From the NCBI RefSeq assembly GCF_024502345.1, contig NZ_JALDNN010000001.1: a DNA stretch of 64,000 nucleotides, one strand, 5' to 3'. The position numbers and the translations under genes were made by a program. A model generated the notes under the pieces. The model saw only the letters and a program-made list of their open reading frames with translations, was not told the origin of the DNA and did no database searches. This document shows positions 1 to 60,521 of this stretch, one piece after another (position 1 is the stretch's first letter; each line of letters opens with the position of its first letter). The DNA is from Escherichia coli. GTDB lineage: Bacteria > Pseudomonadota > Gammaproteobacteria > Enterobacterales > Enterobacteriaceae.

Positions 1-166
1 CACTTTGCGATGAAGGTGAAGCGTTGTATCACCGCATGACCGAGCAAGGAGTGCAATGTACCTGCCAACGCTACCCTGGCGTTATCCACGGATTTTTTCA
101 GTTAGGTGGTATCAGCGAGGCCGCGCGATCGGCACTACGGGATGTTGCCTGGAGAGCGGGAAGGTA
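1..166 (+). CDS. 3' end of an alpha/beta-hydrolase (esterase/lipase, HSL/Aes-like) gene; partial, start lies outside the window
   Basis: Open frame from position 3 to TAA at 164-166 gives ...LCDEGEALYHRMTEQGVQCTCQRYPGVIHGFFQLGGISEAARSALRDVAWRAGR*; a C-terminal HGF motif is typical of the catalytic His region of fold-3 esterases. Not in the ORF track because it is truncated. Confidence 0.45.
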
Positions 167-182
167 ACTTCGGACCTGGGCC

Positions 183-215
183 CTGAAAAGGTTTTCAGAT
201 TGAAAACCTTTTCAG
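183..215. repeat. Perfect 14-bp inverted repeat with 5-nt loop between convergent genes; possible bidirectional terminator
   Basis: ctgaaaaggttttc (183-196) / agatt / gaaaaccttttcag (202-215); lies between the esterase-like stop (166) and the yiiD stop (231). The stem is AT-rich, so terminator strength is uncertain. Confidence 0.4.
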
Positions 216-230
216 TCAAGTAAAACGCCC

Positions 231-1220
231 CTACTCTTCTTCGTTCCCGCCCTCTTCATACGGGCCAAATGGCTTCGCGGGCAGAACGATATACGTGCCT
301 TCAAACACTGCACCCGGCGTCTCGTCGCCAAAGATTTCAACTTGCATCTGCACCCGTGCTTTTCGTCCGCGCGCCAGACGGTCGAGATCGCCGCTTAAGG
401 CACCAAGGTCGGCTACCGCATGGGGTTTACCGCTAATCGGTTTGCTGTAGCGGATATGCGCATCCGCCAGAATAATCGTTCCGCCGAGGTGGCGTTCACG
501 CAGCATCAGCCAGATAAGCCCCCAACCGGTGAGCGTCGCCAGCGAGAATAAACTCCCGGCAAACAGCGTATGGTGCGGATTCTGATTGCCGGTTTCCGGC
601 ATGGTGGTGATAAATTTTTGCCCGGTATATTGTTGAATACGCACGCCCATTTTTTCACTAAGCGGGATATGTTCGTACCACGCCTGTTGCAGCTGCGCGC
701 ACCAGTCGCCGCGATGCAAAATATCATCCAGAGTGGCGACGGGCTTAATCATCAAAAAATGGCGAATCGGCGTGGTGGTTGGCGTGGTGATTTCTCCCTG
801 ATTAACAAACCCCAGCTTGGCGAAAAACTCCACCGCGTCTTCACGGGCGCTACAGGTCACGCGCTTAACGCCTTCCTGACGCGCCACCGACTCTAGGGTC
901 ATCGCCATCAGCGTTCCTAACCCTTTGTCCTGCACGTCCGGGTGAACGGCCATAAAGCGAATGGACGCTTCATTGTCGGCATTAATATACAGTCGGCCTA
1001 CCGCCACCAGATTACCCTGCTCGTCGACGACCATCTGGTGATGCGCCATCGCATCCCACGCGTCGCGTTCCGAACCTTTTGGTTGATGCAGGGGCTTACG
1101 CAACATTTCCCAGCGAAACTGATAGTAACGCTCTAATTCTTCTTCTGTTTGTGGAACCCGAAGGTGATACATAGCGATACTCTCTCTTGTTTCCCGTGAC
1201 AACCCTGGAAGCTGGCTCAT
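231..1220 (-). CDS. yiiD: GNAT acetyltransferase / thioesterase-like fusion protein YiiD (FabY)
   Basis: 329-aa ORF whose sequence I recognise as YiiD; start overlaps the dtd stop (ATGA), implying translational coupling. Confidence 0.9.
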
Positions 1221-1654
1221 ACCTGCAACCAGAATGTCACGGGGCCATCATTGACCAGCGATACCTGCATATCCGCAGCGAAGCGTCCTGTTTGCGTGTT
1301 CATCTCTTGCTGACGGCAGCGTTCGACGAAATAGTCATATAACGCCTCTGCGCGATCCGGTGATGCACCTTTGGAGAAACTTGGGCGCATCCCCCGTTCG
1401 GTATCTGCGGCGAGGGTAAACTGGGAAACCACCAGCACACTGCCGCCCGCCTGTTGCACGTTGAGATTCATCTTGCCTTCGGCATCGCTAAAGATGCGGT
1501 AGCCGAGCACACGCTCGCACAGACGGTTTGCTTTCTGTTCGTCGTCATCCTTTTCGACACCCAATAACACCAAAAGTCCCGCGCCAATTTCGCCCGTCAC
1601 TTCTCCCTCCACGGTGACGCTGGCACGGGTTACGCGTTGAATTAATGCAATCAT
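1217..1654 (-). CDS. dtd: D-aminoacyl-tRNA deacylase
   Basis: 145-aa [22 protein letters not shown]...; length and sequence match Dtd; 4-bp overlap with the upstream rbn stop. Confidence 0.95.
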
Positions 1655-2523
1655 GGTTCGTCGTCTTCTTCTTGTTCAGCTGCTTGTTTTAGTTTGCGGT
1701 ATTCCCCGAGAGTGACAGTAATTTCCGCGCCAAGCAAGACGATACACCATGTCCAGTAGACCCAAACAAAGAGAATGGGGATCACCGCCAGCACACCGTA
1801 AATGAGCTGATATGAGGGGAACATGGTGATATAAAGCGCGAAACCTTTCTTTCCTGCTTCGAACAGGAGTGCAGCAACAAACGCGCCGACAATCGCGTCG
1901 CGGTTAGGTACGCGGATGGTTGGAACAATGCTGTACAGCAACCAGAAGGAGATCCACGACAACAGCAGCGGAAAAATACGCAGCACGTTGTCGATGACAG
2001 TATTGAGATCGCTCGCCCAGCGCAGGGAGAGCAAATAGGAACTGATCGCCAGACTGGCCCCTGCCAGCAGCGGCCCCAGCGTTAAAATCATCCAGTACAC
2101 GGCGAACGAGTAAATTTTTGGTCGAGCTCGTTTACTGCGCCAGATGGTATTCAACGCGCTATCGATGGAGTACATCAACAATAACGCGGTGACGATCAGC
2201 CCGCACGCCCCAACGGCGGTCATCTTGTTGGAATTGGCAACAAATTGTTCGATATACCGCTGAATAACATCGCCAGTAGCAGGCAGAAAGTTGGCAAAAA
2301 TAAAGTGACGCAACTGAATGCTGACGTCGGAAAACATGGGAAAAGCGGCGAAAAGCGCAAAAACAACGGCAACCAGCGGCACTAATGAGAGCAACGACAC
2401 ATAGGCAAGGTTACCTGCCAGGGTTGTCATGTTGTCCTCATCAATGCGTTGCCAGAGTAGTTTCAGCCAGGCCCATAGCGGACGGGTACGGTGCCTGGCT
2501 TTGTCCTGAATGGTTTTTAGCAT
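1651..2523 (-). CDS. yihY: BrkB/YihY family inner-membrane protein
   Basis: 290-aa hydrophobic ORF with multiple predicted TM segments; position between yihX and dtd as in K-12. Confidence 0.9.
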
Positions 2524-3116
2524 AACACCTTCGCGAAATAGTCCGGGATGGTGGTTTTATCTTTCACCAGAATACTGGTAATGCCCAGCTGATTAGCTCC
2601 TTCTATATTATCGGCGTTATCGTCGAAAAAGGCCGTATCGCTGGGTGAAAAACCTTCCGCCTGCAAAACATGCTGGTAAATTCGAGCTTCAGGTTTGCGC
2701 ATCCCCAGATCTTGCGACAGATAGATATGGTCAGCAGCATCACGAATTTCCGGGTATTCTTCCGGCCAGAAGGTGGTATGCAGGCGGTTGGTATTGGAAA
2801 GCACCACCACGCGATGCTCCTGCTCACGCAGTTTATGCATGATGGCGATCACTTCCGGGCGCAGCGCAACAAACACCGCCTGCCAGCCGTGAGAGAACTG
2901 CTCGTAGCTTAGCGGTAGAGCCATCTCATGACACAGCGCCTCTGCGAACGCTTCGTCGCTAATTTCCCCGCGCTCATGCTGATGAAACGCCTCCCCCATA
3001 TGAAAACTCTTCTTAAGCGATGCCAGCGGAATACGCGTTAAATCGCTCCAGGCTCCCAGCACACGGTTAAAGTCGATATCGACAATCACATTACCTAAAT
3101 CAAAGATATAGAGCAT
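2517..3116 (-). CDS. yihX: HAD-superfamily phosphatase (alpha-D-glucose-1-phosphate phosphatase YihX)
   Basis: ORF-track frame 2517..3137; I place the start at the ATG at 3114-3116 ([18 protein letters not shown] motif I DxG) preceded by GGAGG; the track's upstream start is a GTG. Gives 199 aa. Confidence 0.9.
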
Positions 3117-3226
3117 TTTTGCCTCCTTTCGCGCCACAAGAAATTAACTGTAGCGGGAAAGGATGGGTTTGGCTATGTGGCAAGGTATGAAGCCAGGTCA
3201 ACGGTCACAAAAATCTACGCGTCTTC

Positions 3227-4000
3227 CTAGGGAAGAATGATTTCAATTTGGCTGTCTTGTAAGCGTGATTTTAGCGCAGCGGGCGGCAGCTCGTCGGTGA
3301 AGAGCGCGGTGACCTGTGCCACGTTACCAATTTCAACCGCCGCCGAAGCATGATACTTAGTGTGATCGGCGACCAGCAGGATATTTCTCGCGTGCGCCAT
3401 CATCGTTTTCACCACGTTAGCTTCGTTTACATCAAACTCCATCAACGCGCCATCGCTCTCGATTGCGCCTACGCTTGTTACCAGATAATCAGCACGAAAA
3501 TCGGCCACAAAGGACGCCGCTGAAGGGCCAATGATCCCGCTATTATGAGAGCGCAACGTACCGCCGGGCACCATCACTTCAAAGCGCGGGTTGTGGTAAA
3601 GAATATGCGCCACACGCAGGCTGTTGGTGATTATCCGCAAATGATTATGGTTAAGTAACGCCCGGGCGACATGCTCAACGGTCGTACCAATGGTGATAAA
3701 TATTGTTGAACCATCAGGAATATAGTCTGCCACCGCTTCGGCAATCGCTTTTTTTTCCTCGGTTTGCGAAACCTCACGCTGCTCGAACGCCGTATTAACG
3801 ACGCTGGAAGCCCGACCCGCGCCACCGTGATGGCGCGTAATCAGGCCTTGCTCGCTTAATTTACGAATATCCCGGCGCACCGTCTGCGTGGAGACATCCA
3901 GCAGATTTGCCAGCTCATCAATATTCATATACCCACGCTCGGCGATCAGCATGAGGAGTTGGTCGTGCCGCGGGTTACCGGTTAGTTCGGTAAGGCTCAT
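3227..4000 (-). CDS. yihW: DeoR-family transcriptional regulator of the sulfoquinovose cluster (CsqR/YihW)
   Basis: N-terminal HTH (MNIDELANLLDVSTQTVRRDIRKL) plus DeoR C-terminal sugar-binding domain; start chosen at ATG 3998-4000 (MSLTEL...) with GAGGAA 6 nt upstream; the track's longer start is a GTG. Confidence 0.85.
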   Translation of the reverse strand: MSLTELTGNPRHDQLLMLIAERGYMNIDELANLLDVSTQTVRRDIRKLSEQGLITRHHGGAGRASSVVNTAFEQREVSQTEEKKAIAEAVADYIPDGSTIFITIGTTVEHVARALLNHNHLRIITNSLRVAHILYHNPRFEVMVPGGTLRSHNSGIIGPSAASFVADFRADYLVTSVGAIESDGALMEFDVNEANVVKTMMAHARNILLVADHTKYHASAAVEIGNVAQVTALFTDELPPAALKSRLQDSQIEIILP

Positions 4001-4033
4001 GAAAATTCCTCGAAAAACCATCACCCTGGCATT

Positions 4034-4930
4034 TTATACAAAAAGTGACAAAAAAGATCGGGTTTGATCACAGTCAGGGATCCCGGCTCGTCCACCGGGA
4101 CGCGTGCATTTCAACGCCGCTACACCGCTGGCGAAGCGGACTGACTCCGCTAAATCCCCACCTGTTGCCAGCGCCACCGCCAATGCGCCGTGAAAAACAT
4201 CACCCGCACCTGTGGTATCTACCACATCAACTTTGAAGGCCGGTTGATGTTGACGCCCGCCATTTTCCAGCCAGTCACAGCCTGCGCTGCCCTGGGTCAC
4301 ATAGACATGACCATTTGTGAGCGTTTGTGCCTGTTTTAGCGCACTGGCCATCTCTTTCACACCCGTTAAGCGCGCCAGACCCGGTTCTGAAAAGGCCGCA
4401 TGATCGCTTAATGCCACCAGCTCGCTGATATCCTGCGGCGTAATATCACCGTCCAGAACGGTCATCACGCCCGCCTGCCGGGCCAGAGTGAAGGCTTTTT
4501 TAGCGCCGTCGTGCCAGCGTACATCTGCCAGCACAACATCCCACTGAGAGAAATCAATTTCCTCCAACCACTCTGCGTCAGGCAGCAGGTCCGGGCTGGG
4601 GTAGTTAATGATTATCCGCTCGCCTGTGGCATCCACCATGATGGCGGATTGCGATGATTTCGCCTGGTTATACCGTTTGGTGTAACGGGTGTTAACGCCC
4701 CAGGATTCCAGCTCTGCCAGCAGGCTGTTGCCCGTGTCGTCATCACCTACGCGACCCATAAAATCAACCTGCGCCCCCAGCCTTGCCGCCGCAACCGCTG
4801 CCGTCGCCGCTGGCCCGCCACCAACTTCCGTATAATTTCTCGCCACGTATTTACCGCTCTCCGTCGGTAACCCTTCCACGTAATAGATGCGATCCATCAC
4901 GGTTATACCTACACAAGCAACACGAATCAT
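4034..4930 (-). CDS. yihV: PfkB-family sugar kinase (6-deoxy-6-sulfofructose kinase YihV)
   Basis: PfkB ribokinase-like ORF with GAGD motif (DTTGAGDVFHGA); start set at the third Met (MIRVACVG...), 298 aa, with AAGGA upstream. Confidence 0.9.
   Translation of the reverse strand: MIRVACVGITVMDRIYYVEGLPTESGKYVARNYTEVGGGPAATAAVAAARLGAQVDFMGRVGDDDTGNSLLAELESWGVNTRYTKRYNQAKSSQSAIMVDATGERIIINYPSPDLLPDAEWLEEIDFSQWDVVLADVRWHDGAKKAFTLARQAGVMTVLDGDITPQDISELVALSDHAAFSEPGLARLTGVKEMASALKQAQTLTNGHVYVTQGSAGCDWLENGGRQHQPAFKVDVVDTTGAGDVFHGALAVALATGGDLAESVRFASGVAALKCTRPGGRAGIPDCDQTRSFLSLFV
4038..4050. promoter_or_regulatory. Copy 1 of exact 13-bp motif ACAAAAAGTGACA, upstream of yihW inside the 3' end of yihV; candidate regulator-binding element
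   Basis: Exact repeat of the 13-mer at 5063-5075; a chance exact 13-mer match in 64 kb is unlikely (about 1e-3). Confidence 0.4.
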
Positions 4931-8333: not shown

Positions 8334-9554
8334 TGTAGATTCAATTGGTCAACGCAACAGTTATGTGAAAACATGGGGTTGCGGAGGTTTTTTGAATGAG
8401 ACGAACATTTACAGCAGAGGAAAAAGCCTCTGTTTTTGAACTATGGAAGAACGGAACAGGCTTCAGTGAAATAGCGAATATCCTGGGTTCAAAACCCGGA
8501 ACGATCTTCACTATGTTAAGGGATACTGGCGGCATAAAACCCCATGAGCGTAAGCGGGCTGTAGCTCACCTGACACTGTCTGAGCGCGAGGAGATACGAG
8601 CTGGTTTGTCAGCCAAAATGAGCATTCGTGCGATAGCTACTGCGCTGAATCGCAGTCCTTCGACGATCTCACGTGAAGTTCAGCGTAATCGGGGCAGACG
8701 CTATTACAAAGCTGTTGATGCTAATAACCGAGCCAACAGAATGGCGAAAAGGCCAAAACCGTGCTTACTGGATCAAAATTTACCATTGCGAAAGCTTGTT
8801 CTGGAAAAGCTGGAGATGAAATGGTCTCCAGAGCAAATATCAGGATGGTTAAGGCGAACAAAACCACGTCAAAAAACGCTGCGAATATCACCTGAGACAA
8901 TTTATAAAACGCTGTACTTTCGTAGCCGTGAAGCGCTACACCACCTGAATATACAGCATCTGCGACGGTCGCATAGCCTTCGCCATGGCAGGCGTCATAC
9001 CCGCAAAGGCGAAAGAGGTACGATTAACATAGTGAACGGAACACCAATTCACGAACGTTCCCGAAATATCGATAACAGACGCTCTCTGGGGCATTGGGAG
9101 GGCGATTTAGTCTCAGGTACAAAAAACTCTCATATAGCCACACTTGTAGACCGAAAATCACGTTATACGATCATCCTTAGACTCAGGGGCAAAGATTCTG
9201 TCTCAGTAAATCAGGCTCTTACCGACAAATTCCTGAGTTTACCGTCAGAACTCAGAAAATCACTGACATGGGACAGAGGAATGGAACTGGCCAGACATCT
9301 AGAATTTACTGTCAGCACCGGCGTTAAAGTTTACTTCTGCGATCCTCAGAGTCCTTGGCAGCGGGGAACAAATGAGAACACAAATGGGCTAATTCGGCAG
9401 TACTTTCCTAAAAAGACATGTCTTGCCCAATATACTCAACATGAACTAGATCTGGTTGCTGCTCAGCTAAACAACAGACCGAGAAAGACACTGAAGTTCA
9501 AAACACCGAAAGAGATAATTGAAAGGGGTGTTGCATTGACAGATTGAATCTACA
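8334..9554 (+). mobile_element. Insertion sequence IS30, complete 1221-bp copy, flanked by 2-bp target-site duplication GG
   Basis: Left end TGTAGATTCAATTGGTCAACGCAACAGTTATGTG..., right end ...TTGACAGATTGAATCTACA (terminal inverted repeats); length 1221 bp; GG at 8332-8333 and 9555-9556; encodes a 383-aa transposase. Confidence 0.95.
8396..9547 (+). CDS. insI: IS30 transposase (DDE family)
   Basis: 383-aa ORF MRRTFTAEEKASVFELWKNGTGF... with N-terminal HTH and C-terminal DDE domain; recognised as the IS30 transposase. Confidence 0.95.
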   Translation: MRRTFTAEEKASVFELWKNGTGFSEIANILGSKPGTIFTMLRDTGGIKPHERKRAVAHLTLSEREEIRAGLSAKMSIRAIATALNRSPSTISREVQRNRGRRYYKAVDANNRANRMAKRPKPCLLDQNLPLRKLVLEKLEMKWSPEQISGWLRRTKPRQKTLRISPETIYKTLYFRSREALHHLNIQHLRRSHSLRHGRRHTRKGERGTINIVNGTPIHERSRNIDNRRSLGHWEGDLVSGTKNSHIATLVDRKSRYTIILRLRGKDSVSVNQALTDKFLSLPSELRKSLTWDRGMELARHLEFTVSTGVKVYFCDPQSPWQRGTNENTNGLIRQYFPKKTCLAQYTQHELDLVAAQLNNRPRKTLKFKTPKEIIERGVALTD

Positions 9555-10407
9555 GGGCTGTCATTTAGTTATTCCACATAAACCCGAAGAGATGCCGCTG
9601 GCACATCTGGGCAAAGTCCTTATTCCGTGGCCGAACCGGATCGCCAACGGCTGTTATCGCTATCAGGGGCAGGAATATCAGTTACCCATTAATGAACATG
9701 GTTCAAAAGCCGCTATTCATGGGCTGCTCGCCTGGCGTGACTGGCAAATCAGCGAATTAACCGCCACCAGCGTTACCCTGACAGCTTTTCTGCCACCCAG
9801 TTACGGCTATCCGTTTATGCTGGCTTCGCAGGTTGTTTATTCGCTCAATGCACGCACGGGTCTTTCCGTTGAGATCGCAAGTCAGAATATTGGTACTGTG
9901 ACCGCACCCTATGGTGTGGGTATTCATCCTTATTTAACCTGCAACTTAACATCTGTTGATGAATATCTGTTCCAGCTTCCGGCAAACCAGGTTTATGCCG
10001 TCGATGAGCACGCTAATCCGACAACGCTTCACCACGTTGATGAGCTGGATTTAAATTTCACGCAGGCGAAAAAAATAGCCGCGACAAAAATCGACCACAC
10101 CTTTAAAACCGCTAATGATCTGTGGGAAATAACCATTACCCATCCACAACAGGCGCTTTCGGTAAGCCTTTGTTCCGATCAACCCTGGGTGCAGATTTAT
10201 AGCGGCGAAAAATTACAGCGTCAGGGACTGGCAGTTGAACCTATGAGTTGCCCACCTAACGCCTTTAATTCAGGTCTCGACTTATTATTACTGGAACCAG
10301 GGAAAACGCACCGCCTGTTTTTTAATATTTACGGGCAGCACAATTAATTTTATTAAGAAAAGAACGAGATCATTGTTTAGGGTTGTATTTACACAACAGG
10401 AAATATC

Positions 10408-11283
10408 ATGGACTTTTTTACGTTATTTTCACCGGATGGGGTCATGCTGGAAACAAACGTGGTATGTATCGTTATCGCGTTAATGTTTCTTTATACCTTT
10501 GTGGGGATATGCGCGGGATTTGGCGGTGGTTTAACCACCATGCCGCTCGTCACGTTAATGCTCCCCGTAAAAATGGCAACTCCGCTCTCGGTGATTGTCG
10601 GCACCGCGACCGCCTTGTACGCCACCTGGCTGTCACGTAAAGAAACGGATTGGCGATCGGCAATGGTACTGATTATTTTCTCGTTTCTGGGAATACCCGT
10701 CGGTTTATATGCGCTGTCATATTTACCCGACCATTTTATGAAAGTGGGCTTAGGCGGATTCCTTATCCTGTACTCCTTTTACAGTATGTTTATTCCACGC
10801 CTGCCGATTTATGACCGCAACTGGATCGCCGCACCTATCGGCGCTGTGGCAGGAGCGTTAGGGGCAGCGTTTTCAACCAACGGACCGCCGATGGTTATCT
10901 ACGGTATGCTGCGTAACTTAGGCCCGGCGGCATTTCGTGGCACTCTGAACGCTTTCTTCACCGCAAACAACATCGCGGTGATCGGCGGGCTGGCGACCAG
11001 CGGAATTTTGACTGTTTCTATCTTTAAACTGGTGCTGTTTTGTATTCCCACCATGATCCTCGGTTCACTGGTTGGACAATATGTGCATAAACGCATTTCA
11101 GTCAAAGTGTTCCGTGTGATGGTCTTTTTGTTGCTGATTGCCTCCGGTTCTATGTTGATAAAAGGCGCGCTGGGAATTCCCGCTGCTGCCGCGCTTCTGC
11201 CTCCTTTTACCTTGTTAGTTATACTGCAACTGGCATTTGGTAAAAAAGTGGCGGCAATCCGCCGGGCTGAAGAAAGTAAATAA
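10408..11283 (+). CDS. TauE/SafE (TSUP, DUF81) family anion permease; putative sulfite or organosulfonate exporter
   Basis: 291-aa polytopic membrane protein with the family hallmark glycine motif (GICAGFGGGLTTMPL) and a second repeat (GAVAGALGAAFSTNGPP); AGGAAA SD 6 nt before the ATG; host-like GC and codon usage. Sits between yihR and yihQ. Confidence 0.8.
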   Translation: MDFFTLFSPDGVMLETNVVCIVIALMFLYTFVGICAGFGGGLTTMPLVTLMLPVKMATPLSVIVGTATALYATWLSRKETDWRSAMVLIIFSFLGIPVGLYALSYLPDHFMKVGLGGFLILYSFYSMFIPRLPIYDRNWIAAPIGAVAGALGAAFSTNGPPMVIYGMLRNLGPAAFRGTLNAFFTANNIAVIGGLATSGILTVSIFKLVLFCIPTMILGSLVGQYVHKRISVKVFRVMVFLLLIASGSMLIKGALGIPAAAALLPPFTLLVILQLAFGKKVAAIRRAEESK

Positions 11284-11391
11284 TCACTTATGCGGGTTTT
11301 AATTTATACCAGCACCACATTCTTTAATTAATGAAACCTGTAACAACAGGATGGCATGAAATATTAGCTTTATACTCTATGGAGATTATTT

Positions 11392-13424
11392 ATGGATACG
11401 CCACGCCCACAATTACCAGATTTTCAGTTTCATCAGAATAACGACAGTTTTACCCTACATTTTCAACAGCGTCTTATTTTAACCCATAGCAAAGATAATC
11501 CTTGTTTATGGATTGGTTCAGGTATTGCGGATATCGATATGTTCCGCGGCAATTTCAGCATTAAAGATAAACTACAGGAGAAAATTGCGCTTACCGACGC
11601 CATCGTCAGCCAGTCGCCGGATGGTTGGTTAATCCATTTCAGCCGTGGTTCTGACATTAGCGCCACGCTGAATATCTCTGCCGACGATCAGGGCCGTTTA
11701 TTGCTGGAACTACAAAACGACAACCTTAACCACAACCGTATCTGGCTGCGCCTTGCCGCTCAACCAGAGGACCATATCTACGGCTGCGGCGAACAGTTTT
11801 CCTACTTCGATCTGCGTGGCAAACCGTTCCCGCTATGGACCAGTGAACAAGGCGTTGGTCGCAATAAACAAACCTATGTCACCTGGCAGGCCGACTGCAA
11901 AGAAAATGCGGGCGGCGACTATTACTGGACTTTCTTCCCACAGCCTACGTTTGTCAGCACGCAGAAGTATTACTGCCATGTTGATAACAGTTGCTATATG
12001 AACTTCGACTTTAGTGCCCCGGAATACCATGAACTGGCGCTGTGGGAAGACAAAGCAACGCTGCGTTTTGAATGTGCTGACACATACATCTCCCTGCTGG
12101 AAAAATTAACCGCCCTGCTGGGACGCCAGCCAGAACTGCCCGACTGGATTTATGACGGAGTAACGCTCGGCATTCAGGGCGGGACGGAAGTGTGCCAGAA
12201 GAAACTGGACACCATGCGTAACGCGGGCGTGAAGGTCAACGGCATCTGGGCGCAGGACTGGTCCGGTATTCGTATGACCTCTTTTGGCAAACGCGTGATG
12301 TGGAACTGGAAGTGGAACAGCGAAAACTACCCGCAACTGGATTCGCGTATCAAGCAGTGGAACAAAGAGGGCGTGCAGTTCCTTGCCTATATCAACCCGT
12401 ATGTTGCCAGTGATAAAGATCTCTGCGAAGAGGCGGCAAAGCGCGGTTATCTGGCAAAAGATGTCGCCGGTGGCGACTATCTGGTGGAGTTTGGCGAGTT
12501 CTACGGCGGCGTTGTCGATCTCACCAATCCGGAAGCCTACGCCTGGTTCAAGGAAGTTATCAAAAAGAACATGATTGAACTCGGCTGCGGCGGCTGGATG
12601 GCTGACTTCGGCGAGTATCTGCCCACCGACACGTACCTGCATAACGGCATCAGCGCGGAAATTATGCATAACGCCTGGCCCGCGCTGTGGGCGAAATGTA
12701 ACTACGAAGCCTTGAAGAAACGGGCAAGCTCGGCGAGATCCTCTTCTTTATGCGCGCCGGTTCTACCGGTAGCCAGAAATACTCCACCATGATGTGGGCG
12801 GGTGACCAGAACGTGGACTGGAGTCTGGACGATGGCCTGGCGTCGGTTGTCCCGGCGGCGCTATCTCTGGCAATGACCGGACATGGCCTGCATCACAGCG
12901 ACATTGGCGGTTATACCACCCTGTTTGAGATGAAGCGCAGCAAAGAGCTGCTGCGCTGGTGCGATTTCAGCGCCTTCACGCCGATGATGCGCACCCACGA
13001 AGGTAACCGTCCTGGCGACAACTGGCAGTTTGACGGCGACGCGGAAACCATCGCCCATTTCGCCCGTATGACCACCGTCTTCACCACCCTGAAACCTTAC
13101 CTGAAAGAGGCCGTCGCGCTGAATGCGAAGTCCGGCCTGCCGGTTATGCGCCCGCTGTTCCTGCATTACGAAGACGACGCGCAGACCTATTCCCTGAAAT
13201 ATCAGTACCTGTTAGGTCGCGACATTCTGATTGCTCCGGTACACGAAGAAGGTCGCAGCGACTGGACGCTCTATCTGCCAGAGGATAACTGGGTCCACGC
13301 CTGGACCGGAGAAACCTTCCACGGTGGAGAAATAACTGTTGAAGCGCCCATCGGCAAGCCGCCGGTCTTTTATCGCGCCGACAGCGAATGGGCTGCACTG
13401 TTCGCCTCGTTAAAAAACATCTAA
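11392..13424 (+). pseudogene. yihQ: Sulfoquinovosidase (GH31) gene with a -1 frameshift
   Basis: Two overlapping ORFs (11392-12792 and 12750-13424) in different frames both match YihQ. Frame 1 reads ...CNYEAL through 12712-12714; frame 2 reads EETGKLGEILFFMRAGS from 12714. Continuity needs GCC TTG GAA GAA where the sequence has GCC TTG AAG AAA, i.e. one G missing at 12714/12715. Confidence 0.8.
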
Positions 13425-38507: not shown

Positions 38508-39092
38508 GTGAATCTGATGACGACGATAACAGGCGTTGTGCTGGCAGGCGGTAAAGCCAGACGAATGGGCGGCGTAGATAAAGGATTGCTGGAATTAAAT
38601 GGCAAACCGCTGTGGCAACATGTCGCTGACGCGCTTATGGCGCAGCTCTCTCACGTCGTGGTTAATGCTAATCGTCATCAGGAAATCTATCAGGCAAGCG
38701 GTCTGAAAGTGATTGAAGATTCACTGGCGGATTACCCAGGCCCTCTGGCAGGAATGCTTTCAGTAATGCAGCAGGAAGCAGGCGAGTGGTTTTTGTTTTG
38801 TCCGTGCGATACTCCTTATATTCCCGAGGATTTAGCAGCCCGGCTTAATCATCAGCGCAAAGATGCGCCTGTCGTGTGGGTCCATGACGGTGAACGCGAT
38901 CACCCGACTATTGCTCTGGTAAACCGCGCTATTGAGCCTTTATTACTGGAATATCTGCAAGCAGGAGAACGCCGGGTAATGGCATTTATGCGTCTGGCTG
39001 GCGGTCATGCGGTTGATTTCAGCGATCATAAAGATGCATTTGTTAACGTGAATACGCCAGAGGAGCTTGCCCGATGGCAGGAAAAACGATGA
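38508..39092 (+). CDS. mobA: Molybdenum cofactor guanylyltransferase MobA
   Basis: 194-aa ORF (GTG start in the track) with [11 protein letters not shown] nucleotide-binding motif. Confidence 0.9.
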
Positions 39093-39601
39093 TACCGTTA
39101 CTCGCCTTTGCCGCGTGGAGTGGTACCGGAAAAACTACGCTTTTGAAAAAACTGATCCCGGCATTATGCGCCAGAGGGATCCGTCCAGGGCTGATTAAGC
39201 ATACGCACCATGATATGGATGTTGATAAGCCAGGCAAAGATAGCTATGAGCTGCGCAAGGCTGGCGCGGCACAAACCATCGTTGCCAGCCAGCAACGATG
39301 GGCCTTGATGACGGAAACACCAGACGAAGAAGAGCTGGATCTACAGTTTCTCGCAAGTCGAATGGATACCTCAAAGCTGGATTTGATTCTGGTCGAAGGG
39401 TTTAAGCATGAAGAGATCGCAAAGATTGTGCTGTTTCGCGATGGAGCCGGACATCGACCTGAAGAATTAGTGATAGACAGGCATGTTATTGCTGTAGCCA
39501 GTGATGTGCCGCTTAATCTTGATGTCGCATTACTGGATATTAATGATGTTGAGGGGCTGGCTGATTTTGTGGTGGAGTGGATGCAAAAGCAGAACGGATA
39601 A
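39074..39601 (+). CDS. mobB: Molybdopterin-guanine dinucleotide biosynthesis adapter MobB
   Basis: 175-aa ORF with P-loop GTGKTT; overlaps the mobA 3' end. Confidence 0.9.
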
Positions 39602-47227: not shown

Positions 47228-47845
47228 TTATTCTTCAATCGCTAACAATTGCAATGAACCACGGCTAAAATCCGCCAGCTTTGCGGAAAATTCAGCCACT
47301 TTCGCCGCCGGAAGCGCCACCCGCAGCAGAACGAATGCCTGATAATCACTGTTGATAATTTTGCCGTCACACTGCCCCAGCAACGCTTCAATGCCGGTTA
47401 ACTGATGATATTCACATTGCAAAGTATATTCGGTTAATGGCGTCTTGCGTTGGGTCGTTAGCTGGCGCAGCGCCTGATTCACGCCGCCGCCATACGCTTT
47501 CACTAACCCACCGGTGCCAAGCAATATGCCGCCGTAGTAGCGCACTACCACAGCGGTAATTTCCCCGACGCCGCTGCCCATTAGCTGGGCGAGCATCGGT
47601 TTACCTGCCGTTCCTGCCGGCTCCCCGTCGTCAGAGAAACCCAGCTGTTGAGAATCATCCGGCGCACCCGCCACCCACGCCACGCAATGGTGGCGGGCAT
47701 CGGGGTGTTCTGCCCGCACCGATTCAACAAACGCTTTCGCCGCCTCAACGCCATCGGTATGCGCCAACATCGTTATGAAGCGGCTTTTTTTGATCTCTTC
47801 AACGACCGTGACCGGTGCCGCAGGAATTAACCAGCTTTCCATCAC
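47228..47845 (-). CDS. yigZ: IMPACT-family protein YigZ
   Basis: 205-aa ORF; start overlaps the pepQ stop (ATGA). Confidence 0.85.
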
Positions 47846-49173
47846 GCCAGTTTCAGATCCCGGGTCATGTTTTCCACGTTGTTTTCGTGGATCACCACGT
47901 TGTCTTCGATACGAATGCCGCCGAACGGTTTCAGTGCTTCAATTTTCTGCCAGTTGAAGTGCTTGCTGAACTGCCCTTCACGCCACGGTGCCAGTAGCGA
48001 TTCAATGAAGTAGATACCCGGTTCGATGGTTAACACCATACCCGGCTGGAGAATACGGGTGCAGCGCAGGTACGGATATTTTGCCGGTGCCGCGAGGTGT
48101 GTACCGCTATCATCCTGCATAAAACCGGCTACGTCATGCACCTGCAGGCCCAGCGGATGACCGATACCGTGCGGCATAAACGGTCCGGTGAGATCGTTTT
48201 CGACCATCGCTTCTTCACTCATATCGGTGATGATTTGATGTTTACGCAGCAGTTTGGCGATGCGCTGATGGAACTGGATGTGGTAATCCACATAGCTAAC
48301 GCCTGCTTTCATGGTGGCGATCAGCGCCAGTTGTTCATCATTTACGTCTTTCACCAGCTGTGCGTAGTCGTTGTCGCTTTTTGCCGACCAGGTACGAGTC
48401 AGGTCAGCCGCATAGCCGTTATATTCGGCCCCGGCATCCAGCAGGAAGCTGCGCATCTCTTCCGGTGCCTGGTGGTCCAGTTTGGTGTAATGCAGCACCG
48501 CAGCGTGTTCGTTAAGCGCCACAATGTTGCTGTAAGGTACGTCGGTATCACGATGACCGGTCGCGGTCAGATAGGCAATGTTGATATCGAACTCGCTCAT
48601 GCCAGAACGGAACGCTTCTTCTGCCGCGCGATGACCGTTGACCGCCATTTTCTGCGCTTCACGCATACAGGCCAGTTCGTACTCGGTTTTGAAGGAGCGG
48701 TAGTAATGCAGGTAGTCGATCACCCCTTTCGGGTTGATGTTGCTGGCCTCAATACCCAGTTGCAGCGCACGTTCCGGCACCGGACCGATATAACCGATAT
48801 TGCCGCGCGCAGCAGGCAGCAGGCTACCAATGCCATCGGCTTTCGGCAGCGCGATCACTTCCACATCTTCAGTCCAGAAGGAGGTCGGCAGCGGTTCGAC
48901 GTTGTGCCAGTAATCAACCGGCAGATAGAACCACAGTTTCGGCTTGTTCACGCCATCCACCAGCAACCAGCAGTTTGGCACCTGAGTTACCGGCACCCAC
49001 GCTTTGAATTGCGGGTTCACTTTAAACGGATAGGGATGATCGTCGAGAAAAACGTTGAACAGCTCGCCGGAGTGAATAAGTAATGCATCCAGCTTGAAGC
49101 GCGCCAGCGCATCGCGAGTCCGTTCTTGTAAGGTAGCTATATGATTTTTATAGAGCGAGGCCAGTGATTCCAT
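47842..49173 (-). CDS. pepQ: Xaa-Pro dipeptidase (prolidase)
   Basis: 443-aa ORF, M24 metallopeptidase fold; matches PepQ. Confidence 0.9.

Positions 49174-55278: not shown

Positions 55279-56591
<1,313 letters not shown>

Positions 56592-58278: not shown

Positions 58279-60521
<2,243 letters not shown>

Follow-up and report, generated by a model that had tools for sequence, protein, structure and literature searches.

The window, by which we mean the whole stretch of 64 000 nucleotides that was analysed, is E. coli-like DNA, the region being 99% identical to E. coli genomes, and it carries four genes, yihX, yihY, dtd and fabY, on its minus strand between positions 231 and 3116, with the gene order of E. 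coli K-12 preserved. A tblastn comparison with K-12 gave 99–100% identity for the four proteins and an identical gene order. The first gene, yihX (2517–3116, minus strand), encodes an alpha-D-glucose-1-phosphate phosphatase of the HAD family (199 residues; NF006991 equivalog, E = 3e-120) and is annotated in the same way in K-12 and by PGAP; yihY (1651–2523, minus strand) encodes an inner-membrane protein of the BrkB/YihY family (290 residues; NF002457 equivalog, E = 1.7e-143), and dtd (1217–1654, minus strand) encodes a D-aminoacyl-tRNA deacylase (145 residues; TIGR00256 equivalog, E = 9e-77). For the product of fabY, also known as yiiD or madA, the NCBIfam search returned a GNAT domain and a YiiD C-terminal thioesterase-like domain. 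These matches agree with a first-pass annotation of the DNA, which had named a phosphatase, a membrane protein, a deacylase and an acyltransferase/thioesterase and had placed them in one operon. The operon reading is also correct: it corresponds to yihXY-dtd-yiiD (yiiD being fabY), which RegulonDB, as cited in PMC4421995, lists as a single four-gene transcription unit. The locus is an E. coli operon, yihX-yihY-dtd-fabY, that had been catalogued before, and as a finding it is ordinary.

The start of yihX is the ATG at 3116, before which stands AAGGAGG (3122–3128, minus strand), a strong Shine–Dalgarno (SD) sequence with an anti-SD duplex energy of −11.6 kcal/mol and a 4-nt spacer, through which ribosomes would enter the operon; the median SD energy for yihX over 61 relatives was −8.7 kcal/mol. 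The GTG at 3137, given in the ORF listing, was rejected as the start, as it has no SD and it is the ATG with its AAGGAGG that is conserved. Further upstream we identified a putative promoter, made up of a −35-like hexamer, TAGCCA (3170–3175, minus strand), and a −10-like hexamer, TACAGT (3147–3152, minus strand, in the context GCTACAGTTAA), with 17 nt between them, from which transcription of a sigma-70 type would begin. Conservation is what points to this site: at 46 of 61 related loci, T[AG][GT][TC]CA is found 16–18 nt upstream of TA[CGA]AGT, 28–34 nt before the yihX ATG, and this pattern is kept whatever gene stands upstream; in many relatives it is immediately preceded by the terminator of a gene that is not related to the operon. 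The −10 element reads TACAGT at 34 of these loci, TAGAGT at nine and TAAAGT at three. The site scores 8/12 and so falls below the cut-off of our generic scan (9/12); at that threshold the minus strand between 1 and 4200 showed no promoter-like site. Nor did the scan place a terminator-like site between yihX and the fabY start, and over the minus strand its promoter and terminator calls gave nothing beyond chance. An Rfam search of positions 1–4200 (E ≤ 1) found no element, and the SMRT-Cappable-seq supplements hold no entry for these genes. A hairpin that would sequester the SD of yihX was also considered as a regulator and rejected because its 5′ arm is promoter spacer and −10 DNA, which confines the hairpin to transcripts reading through from csqR.

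The coding sequences of yihX and yihY overlap by 7 nt at 2517–2523 (ATGCTAA, combining the yihY ATG with the yihX TAA), and those of yihY and dtd by 4 nt at 1651–1654 (ATGA, combining the dtd ATG with the yihY TGA), both on the minus strand between co-directional genes and both as previously reported from the sequence. Among the 26 loci at which the yihY start is unambiguous, with YihY aligning from residue 1, the yihX/yihY spacing was −7 in 21, −4 in four and −1 in one, and within core Enterobacteriaceae this −7 arrangement is conserved. The yihY/dtd junction has been maintained more widely in evolution; a spacing of −4 was found at 45 of 66 loci (44 ATGA and one GTGA), spanning four orders of the Gammaproteobacteria (Enterobacterales, Vibrionales, Pasteurellales and Orbales) and including Photobacterium, Vibrio, Aggregatibacter and Zophobihabitans.

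The SD energies fall away along the operon, from −11.6 kcal/mol at yihX to −3.9 kcal/mol at yihY, the weak AAGGTG of which (2526–2531) is not conserved, and −1.9 kcal/mol at dtd, where an SD is nearly absent. Across loci, the median SD energy of dtd was −3.3 kcal/mol where the gene overlaps or abuts yihY (n = 49), vs. −6.0 kcal/mol where it is spaced from its upstream gene (n = 29; Mann–Whitney p = 2e-5, with loci taken as independent and shared ancestry ignored). In the supplement of Burkhardt 2017, in which dtd is the only one of the four genes present, its translation efficiency is average, at 0.80, despite an SD score of −0.88. Both overlaps are real and conserved, and they probably couple translation; the −4 and −7 junctions are kept more faithfully than would be expected from inertia alone. 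Conserved overlaps, weak downstream SDs and stronger SDs where the genes are spaced fit termination–reinitiation coupling, while falling short of proof, and yihY and dtd have almost no SDs, with start codons that precede the stop of the gene before them by 7 and 4 nt, respectively. Most likely, the bulk of their translation would come from ribosomes fresh from termination on the preceding cistron. The first-pass annotation had proposed tight coupling at every junction; this is plausible at yihX/yihY and yihY/dtd, but not at dtd/yiiD.

It is possible, although we think it rather unlikely, that genome compaction, together with the ease with which NTGA junctions evolve, produced the overlaps as neutral by-products, with free 30S subunits starting each cistron de novo, dtd by way of its A-rich, unstructured start region, and with no function resting on translation of the preceding gene. 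The conserved Met-Ile N-terminus of the deacylase supplies the ATGA at dtd at no cost, and the −4 class as a whole is thought to be abundant partly through easy evolution (Brown and Wade 2025). The start region of dtd is, moreover, A-rich and unusually unstructured (z = +1.8), so that SD-independent de novo initiation would be possible from that alone, and when five ATGA pairs native to E. coli were put to experiment, one of them, bioBF, was uncoupled (Huber 2019, PMC6728339). The other four pairs in the same study were coupled, however, and a neutral origin sits poorly with YihY tails of 12 different lengths (21–56 residues) that all terminate exactly at the dtd ATGA, with a dtd SD that is stronger where the overlap has been lost, and with the possession by yihX, the leading gene, of by far the strongest SD.

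A third coupled junction, between dtd and yiiD, is not supported. An ATGA is indeed present at 1217–1220 (minus strand), containing the TGA stop of dtd and the start of fabY annotated in K-12, but a stop/start overlap exists only if that start is used, and it is probably not the main one. In the PGAP record for strain R1 the start is placed 48 nt downstream, at codon M17 (window position 1172; MYHLRVP...), giving a fabY of 313 codons (231–1172, minus strand). With this start, which is both conserved and supported by experiment, the overlap geometry is lost, M17 lying 44 nt past the dtd stop and having its own purine-rich ribosome-binding site. A conserved MY/MF start could be located at 71 of the 72 loci carrying both genes, and the upstream ATG is absent or its frame closed in many genera. 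The 44-nt spacer (1173–1216, minus strand), which in K-12 would be FabY codons 2–16, contains a conserved purine block, AAGAGAGAG (1180–1188), at the position where other genera have SDs of the GGAG/GGGG type, and M17 has an SD energy of −5.1 kcal/mol at a spacing of 5 nt; at the K-12 ATG, an SD-like CAGGT directly abuts the start codon with a spacer of 0 nt. Nor does the extension evolve as coding sequence, since the ratio of divergence at codon positions 1 and 2 to that at position 3 is 0.84, compared with a maximum of 0.34 over all 15-codon windows of dtd and fabY, and the spacer shows no codon periodicity and an amino-acid identity of 0.61 vs. 0.93. A small hairpin, CUGGUUGCAGGUAUGAGCCAG (1212–1232, minus strand), which encloses the dtd stop and the ATGA, emerged when 18 sequences from Enterobacteriaceae were folded to a consensus, with weak support; one of its pairs covaries (C-G in seven, U-A in six and U-G in five) and the others are invariant. 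It was rejected as an intrinsic terminator because it lacks a U tract.

Published measurements agree with the comparative result. In the TetRP data with which Nakahigashi 2016 (PMC4909307) remapped the N-termini of K-12 proteins, the three read values are 7.2, 0 and 0 at the annotated fabY start, compared with 30.1, 22.0 and 6.1 at the ATG at +48, and yiiD appears as row 111 of Table S2 with the new start ATG +48, in the class ‘1. new site’. The counts are low and some signal at the annotated start is seen in one replicate, which leaves room for a minor long form of FabY. A published expression study with pET28a found M17 to act as an internal start of FabY, with an apparent ribosome-binding site, even behind the ribosome-binding site of the vector; none of the four genes is listed in the N-terminomics supplements of TRAINSPOTTER. 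The long form is still carried by the K-12 reference, whereas PGAP records have the short one. The fabY start codon in K-12 is thus probably wrong and the third overlap probably an artefact of annotation. With support from these published data, fabY is placed outside the coupled chain, initiating at M17 from its own ribosome-binding site, the ATGA at 1217–1220 representing the Val and stop codons of dtd (GTA TGA) followed by an open spacer of 16 codons. This correction is the useful outcome of the analysis: the K-12 start is at odds with the comparative data, with PGAP, with ribosome profiling and with an expression artefact, and the malonyl-ACP decarboxylase MadA, or FabY, is best regarded as a protein of 313 residues beginning MYHLRVP.

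The depth to which the yihY-dtd ATGA is conserved offers a modest lead to the as yet unassigned function of the membrane protein YihY. More speculatively, and with a low probability in our estimation, the junction may mean that YihY and the deacylase are tied together in function or in stoichiometry, for example in the handling or export of D-amino acids, and in Escherichia and its relatives ribosomes that finish dtd may occasionally reinitiate at the ATGA of 1217–1220 and make a minor FabY of 329 residues; within the searched literature that mentions both, we found no functional link between YihY/BrkB and the deacylase.

Turning to transcription, a single transcript would extend over yihX, yihY, dtd and fabY, with no terminator evident inside the cluster. 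That there is instead no single operon, and that every gene, or at a minimum dtd and fabY, is transcribed separately from an internal promoter, we regard as improbable. Internal promoters are frequent within E. coli operons, fabY has its own ribosome-binding site behind a 44-nt spacer, and in some Aeromonas and Aliivibrio loci it lies hundreds of nucleotides from dtd. Against separate transcripts stand the empty scan of the minus strand described above, the overlap of the coding sequences, which leaves no intergenic space, the conserved gene synteny, and the single four-gene unit of RegulonDB.

The least probable reading, and a very doubtful one, is that all three junctions are coupled overlaps and the 329-residue FabY is the main product, for although that form is annotated with its −4 overlap in K-12, the ATGA and open frame are kept at about 22 loci of Enterobacteriaceae and at some of Pantoea/Erwinia, the changes in length within that clade, of +3 and −12 nt, leave the frame intact, and one TetRP replicate has reads at the 1220 start, the ATG is missing or the frame closed in many Enterobacterales, the ATG itself lies inside a hairpin, and the MYHLRVP start, together with the coding pattern, SD spacing, PGAP, TetRP and expression results given above, all favour M17. 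The reading that we prefer, and consider reasonably probable as a whole, is of one housekeeping operon at 231–3175 on the minus strand, in which yihY and dtd are coupled by reinitiation and fabY is translated from M17.

Overlaps had also been listed elsewhere in the window. The ATGA at ubiJ/ubiB (59916–59919) is borne out by the sequence, as is the convergent 4-bp overlap of rfaH and tatD (55809–55812), which reads CTAA, but the supposed ATGA at yigZ/pepQ (47842–47845) is in fact GTGA; in K-12 the next ATG is annotated, giving a 1-nt TGATG overlap. By a hand count of the K-12 annotation, 6 of 32 co-directional neighbour pairs overlap in the part of the region that the count covered. ATGA-type overlaps are the commonest class of gene junction in prokaryotes and, as they are so commonplace and the operon is catalogued, the overall importance of the locus is small. 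Overlapping gene pairs make up around 15% in a typical prokaryote (Huber 2019, PMC6728339).

The operon itself does not differ materially from the K-12 unit yihXY-dtd-yiiD (b3885–b3888; RegulonDB/EcoCyc), with which it shares genes, order and orientation, and the junction sequences are identical to those of K-12 (−7, −4 and −4 as annotated there); an alpha/beta-hydrolase gene lies downstream of fabY in the present strain and is absent from K-12. The coupled pairs of Huber 2019 (PMC6728339) differ in several respects. Coupling of those pairs was assayed with premature-stop constructs, whereas that of yihX-yihY-dtd is proposed here from sequence comparison; most of them depend on an intragenic SD, whereas dtd has virtually none; the −7 spacing of yihX/yihY is rarer than their −4; and no common complex is known to contain the four products of yihX-yihY-dtd-fabY. 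In geometry, however, yihY/dtd is the same as hyfHI, astDB, ydbH/ynbE as well as menDH, all of which are co-directional pairs with a −4 NTGA junction.

Over its first 4.1 kb, the window is matched at 95-99% identity by 5,425 of 5,426 complete E. coli genomes, and the annotation beneath these matches reads fabY, dtd, yihY, yihX and csqR. On the minus strand, NCBIfam equivalogs identified yihX (3116..2517, glucose-1-phosphatase), yihY (2523..1651, a BrkB/YihY-family membrane protein) and dtd (1654..1217, D-aminoacyl-tRNA deacylase); fabY (yiiD), on the same strand, ends at 231 and begins at either 1220 (K-12, 329 aa) or 1172 (PGAP, strain R1, 313 aa), and by NCBIfam its product comprises a GNAT domain and a YiiD C-terminal thioesterase-like domain. 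The terminator scan gave no terminator-like site between yihX and the fabY start, and the operon region had no Rfam matches. The first-pass annotation was right to read these genes as an operon, and RegulonDB has a four-gene yihXY-dtd-yiiD transcription unit, in the form quoted by Esquerre et al. 2015 (PMC4421995). An alpha/beta-hydrolase gene convergent with fabY has its 3' end in window 1-230; the strain R1 annotation includes this gene, and K-12 lacks it. This end of the window is uncovered in about one-quarter of E. coli genomes, and a perfect 15-bp palindrome, CTGAAAAGGTTTTCA-GAT-TGAAAACCTTTTCAG (183-215), without a U tract, lies between the two stops.

We compared 80 loci, each surrounding a Dtd homologue, taken from species-representative genomes. 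The order yihX-yihY-dtd-fabY is retained in most Enterobacterales, yihY-dtd-fabY in Vibrionaceae and Aeromonas, and yihY-dtd in Pasteurellales and Orbales. Dickeya, Pectobacterium, Brenneria, Photorhabdus, Xenorhabdus, Providencia and Morganella have lost yihY from between yihX and dtd; in the sampled loci without yihY (L031-L033, L035, L038, L041, L042, L045, L047, L053, L061 and L063) dtd lies 7-189 nt 3' of yihX, mostly with its own Shine-Dalgarno (SD) sequence, of AAGGA/CAGGAG type where yihY was lost.

Just 5' of yihX we found a promoter-like element (-35 T[AG][GT][TC]CA, 16-18 nt, -10 TA[CGA]AGT), placed 28-34 nt from the yihX ATG in 46 of 61 loci irrespective of the upstream gene, whose rho-independent terminator often directly precedes it. 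The putative hexamers in the window, TAGCCA (3175..3170, minus) and TACAGT (3152..3147, minus), score 8/12, and the generic promoter scan, with its threshold of 9/12, gave no site on the operon's strand. The spacer, CTTTCCCGC, is unusually conserved among Enterobacterales; the conserved -10 region, GCTACAGTTAA (3144-3154, minus), has a C immediately 5' of the hexamer, and we take it to resemble the sigma-S-preferred extended -10 (KCTAYRCTTAA). A predicted hairpin (z = -2.5) sequesters the yihX SD; because its 5' arm consists of the promoter spacer and -10 region, it would be present only in csqR read-through transcripts.

The minus-strand stop/start motifs were located correctly in the first-pass annotation: ATGCTAA at 2523..2517 (yihX/yihY), ATGA at 1654..1651 (yihY/dtd) and ATGA at 1220..1217 (dtd stop and K-12 fabY start). 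At yihX/yihY, counted in the 26 loci with YihY aligned from residue 1, the overlap is 7 nt in 21, 4 nt in four and 1 nt in one; Serratia, Yersinia, Hafnia and Budvicia have a gap of 40-170 nt. At yihY/dtd the overlap is 4 nt in 45 of 66 loci (44 ATGA, 1 GTGA) and 1 nt in two, and 13 of the remaining 19 have gaps of 0-21 nt. The YihY tail past the last conserved motif is variable in sequence and has 12 different lengths (21-56 residues), yet it ends precisely at the dtd ATGA in all 45 loci of the 4-nt class, which argues for an overlap that is maintained and not merely inherited.

SD/anti-SD energies in the window are -11.6 kcal/mol for yihX (AAGGAGG; median among relatives -8.7), -3.9 for yihY and -1.9 for dtd. 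Among relatives, dtd genes that overlap or abut yihY have weaker SDs (median -3.3, n = 49) than those separated from their upstream gene by a spacer (-6.0, n = 29; Mann-Whitney p = 2e-5, a statistic that ignores phylogeny). Published in vivo data put the translation efficiency of dtd at 0.80 and its SD score at just -0.88 (Burkhardt 2017, supplementary file 1). This ribosome-binding-site pattern fits coupling. However, the 100-nt region spanning the dtd start has unusually little structure (z = +1.8; of 200 shuffles, 198 fold at least equally well), a property from which SD-independent de novo initiation of dtd would benefit as well, and of five ATGA pairs native to E. coli, one proved uncoupled when tested (Huber 2019, PMC6728339). 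With conserved overlaps and weak SDs at both yihX/yihY and yihY/dtd, coupling there is plausible and, as far as sequence can tell, the best-supported reading.

Coupling had also been claimed at dtd/yiiD, wrongly in our analysis. PGAP places the fabY start 48 nt downstream of the K-12 ATG, at Met 17 (M17) of the 329-aa form, and five lines of evidence favour M17 over 1220. First, a conserved MY/MF start, mostly 15-124 nt past the dtd stop, was found in 71 of the 72 loci having both genes (MYHLRVP in most Enterobacterales, MF or other MY variants in Vibrionaceae and Aeromonas), whereas many genera (Cedecea, Serratia, Yersinia, Dickeya and Photorhabdus among them) lack the stop-overlapping ATG or have its frame closed. 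Second, a purine block, AAGAGAGAG (1188..1180, minus), lies 8-16 nt 5' of M17 and is nucleotide-conserved also in genomes with the closed frame, other genera having GGAG/GGGG-type SDs in its position; the M17 SD has -5.1 kcal/mol and a 5-nt spacer, against a 0-nt spacer for the CAGGT of the upstream ATG. Third, in 18 Enterobacteriaceae sequences sharing one spacer length, divergence by codon position was 0.19/0.26/0.27 over the 15 'extension' codons, compared with 0.06/0.03/0.42 in fabY and 0.06/0.04/0.39 in dtd; the ratio of position-1/2 to position-3 divergence was 0.84, and at most 0.34 in every real coding 15-codon window, with amino-acid identities of 0.61 (extension) and 0.93. Fourth, tetracycline ribosome profiling lists ATG +48 as a '1. 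new site' for yiiD, with reads of 30.1/22.0/6.1 there and 7.2/0/0 at the annotated site (Nakahigashi 2016, PMC4909307, Table S2 row 111). Fifth, expression of the cloned 329-aa gene from pET28a yielded two bands of protein, with an internal start at M17 that has an apparent ribosome-binding site (Whaley et al. 2021). We therefore prefer to see in the ATGA at 1217-1220 the dtd codons GTA TGA and, beyond them, an open spacer. Some reinitiation may still occur at this ATGA, since the frame is open throughout the Escherichia/Citrobacter/Enterobacter clade, where two indels are multiples of three, and one profiling replicate has signal at the annotated start; according to a review, some coupling to M17 is still possible across the 44-nt gap, at reduced efficiency. 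A hairpin around the dtd stop (1232..1212), inside a longer window-specific stem (1240..1196; z = -2.3), has one covarying pair in 18 sequences, and we assign no function to it or to the yihX-SD hairpin.

ATGA coupling is textbook knowledge. Further overlaps had been proposed in the window, and two stand: ubiJ/ubiB is ATGA (a 4-nt overlap in K-12 annotation), and the convergent genes rfaH and tatD share 4 bp. The yigZ/pepQ motif (47842-47845) is GTGA, not ATGA; in the yigZ start region, GCGTGATGG (47839-47848, minus), adjacent GTG (-4, GTGA) and ATG (-1, TGATG) candidates both overlap the pepQ stop, and K-12 uses the ATG, giving a 1-nt overlap. A 19-nt same-strand overlap of mobA and mobB (39074-39092; ORFs 38508-39092 and 39074-39601) had been missed. 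Brief overlaps of same-strand genes are common. By hand count in K-12 annotation, over the fetched part of the region, six of 32 co-directional neighbour pairs overlap; about 15% of gene pairs do so in most prokaryotic groups, and NTGA (-4) is by far the commonest spacing class (Huber 2019, PMC6728339; Brown and Wade 2025).

Elsewhere in this strain, an IS30-family element (8334-9554; 26-nt terminal inverted repeats 8334-8359 and 9529-9554; transposase ORF 8396-9547, NF033563, E = 3e-82) sits in the 5' end of yihR, whose residual ORF (9544-10347) covers aldose-1-epimerase profile positions 36-299 of 300. yihQ (11392-13424; alpha-glucosidase PRK10426, sulfoquinovosidase) is broken into two overlapping ORFs, 11392-12792 (profile positions 3-446 of 683) and 12750-13424 (455-680). 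A frameshift has probably made it a pseudogene, and the sulfoquinovose cluster accordingly looks degraded. The approximately 1 kb between yihR and yihQ (10348-11391) is apparently absent from K-12, and its 291-aa ORF (10408-11283, plus) had no NCBIfam match.

None of the searched literature mentioning both YihY/BrkB and the deacylase describes a functional link between them. The yihX-yihY-dtd-fabY cluster is a known K-12 operon whose junction geometry is already visible in the reference annotation; the problem with the fabY start has likewise been published before, and PGAP records carry the corrected position. Mildly novel in the operon analysis is only how deeply the exact yihY-dtd ATGA junction is conserved, a hint that YihY, an uncharacterised membrane protein, may be functionally linked to Dtd.
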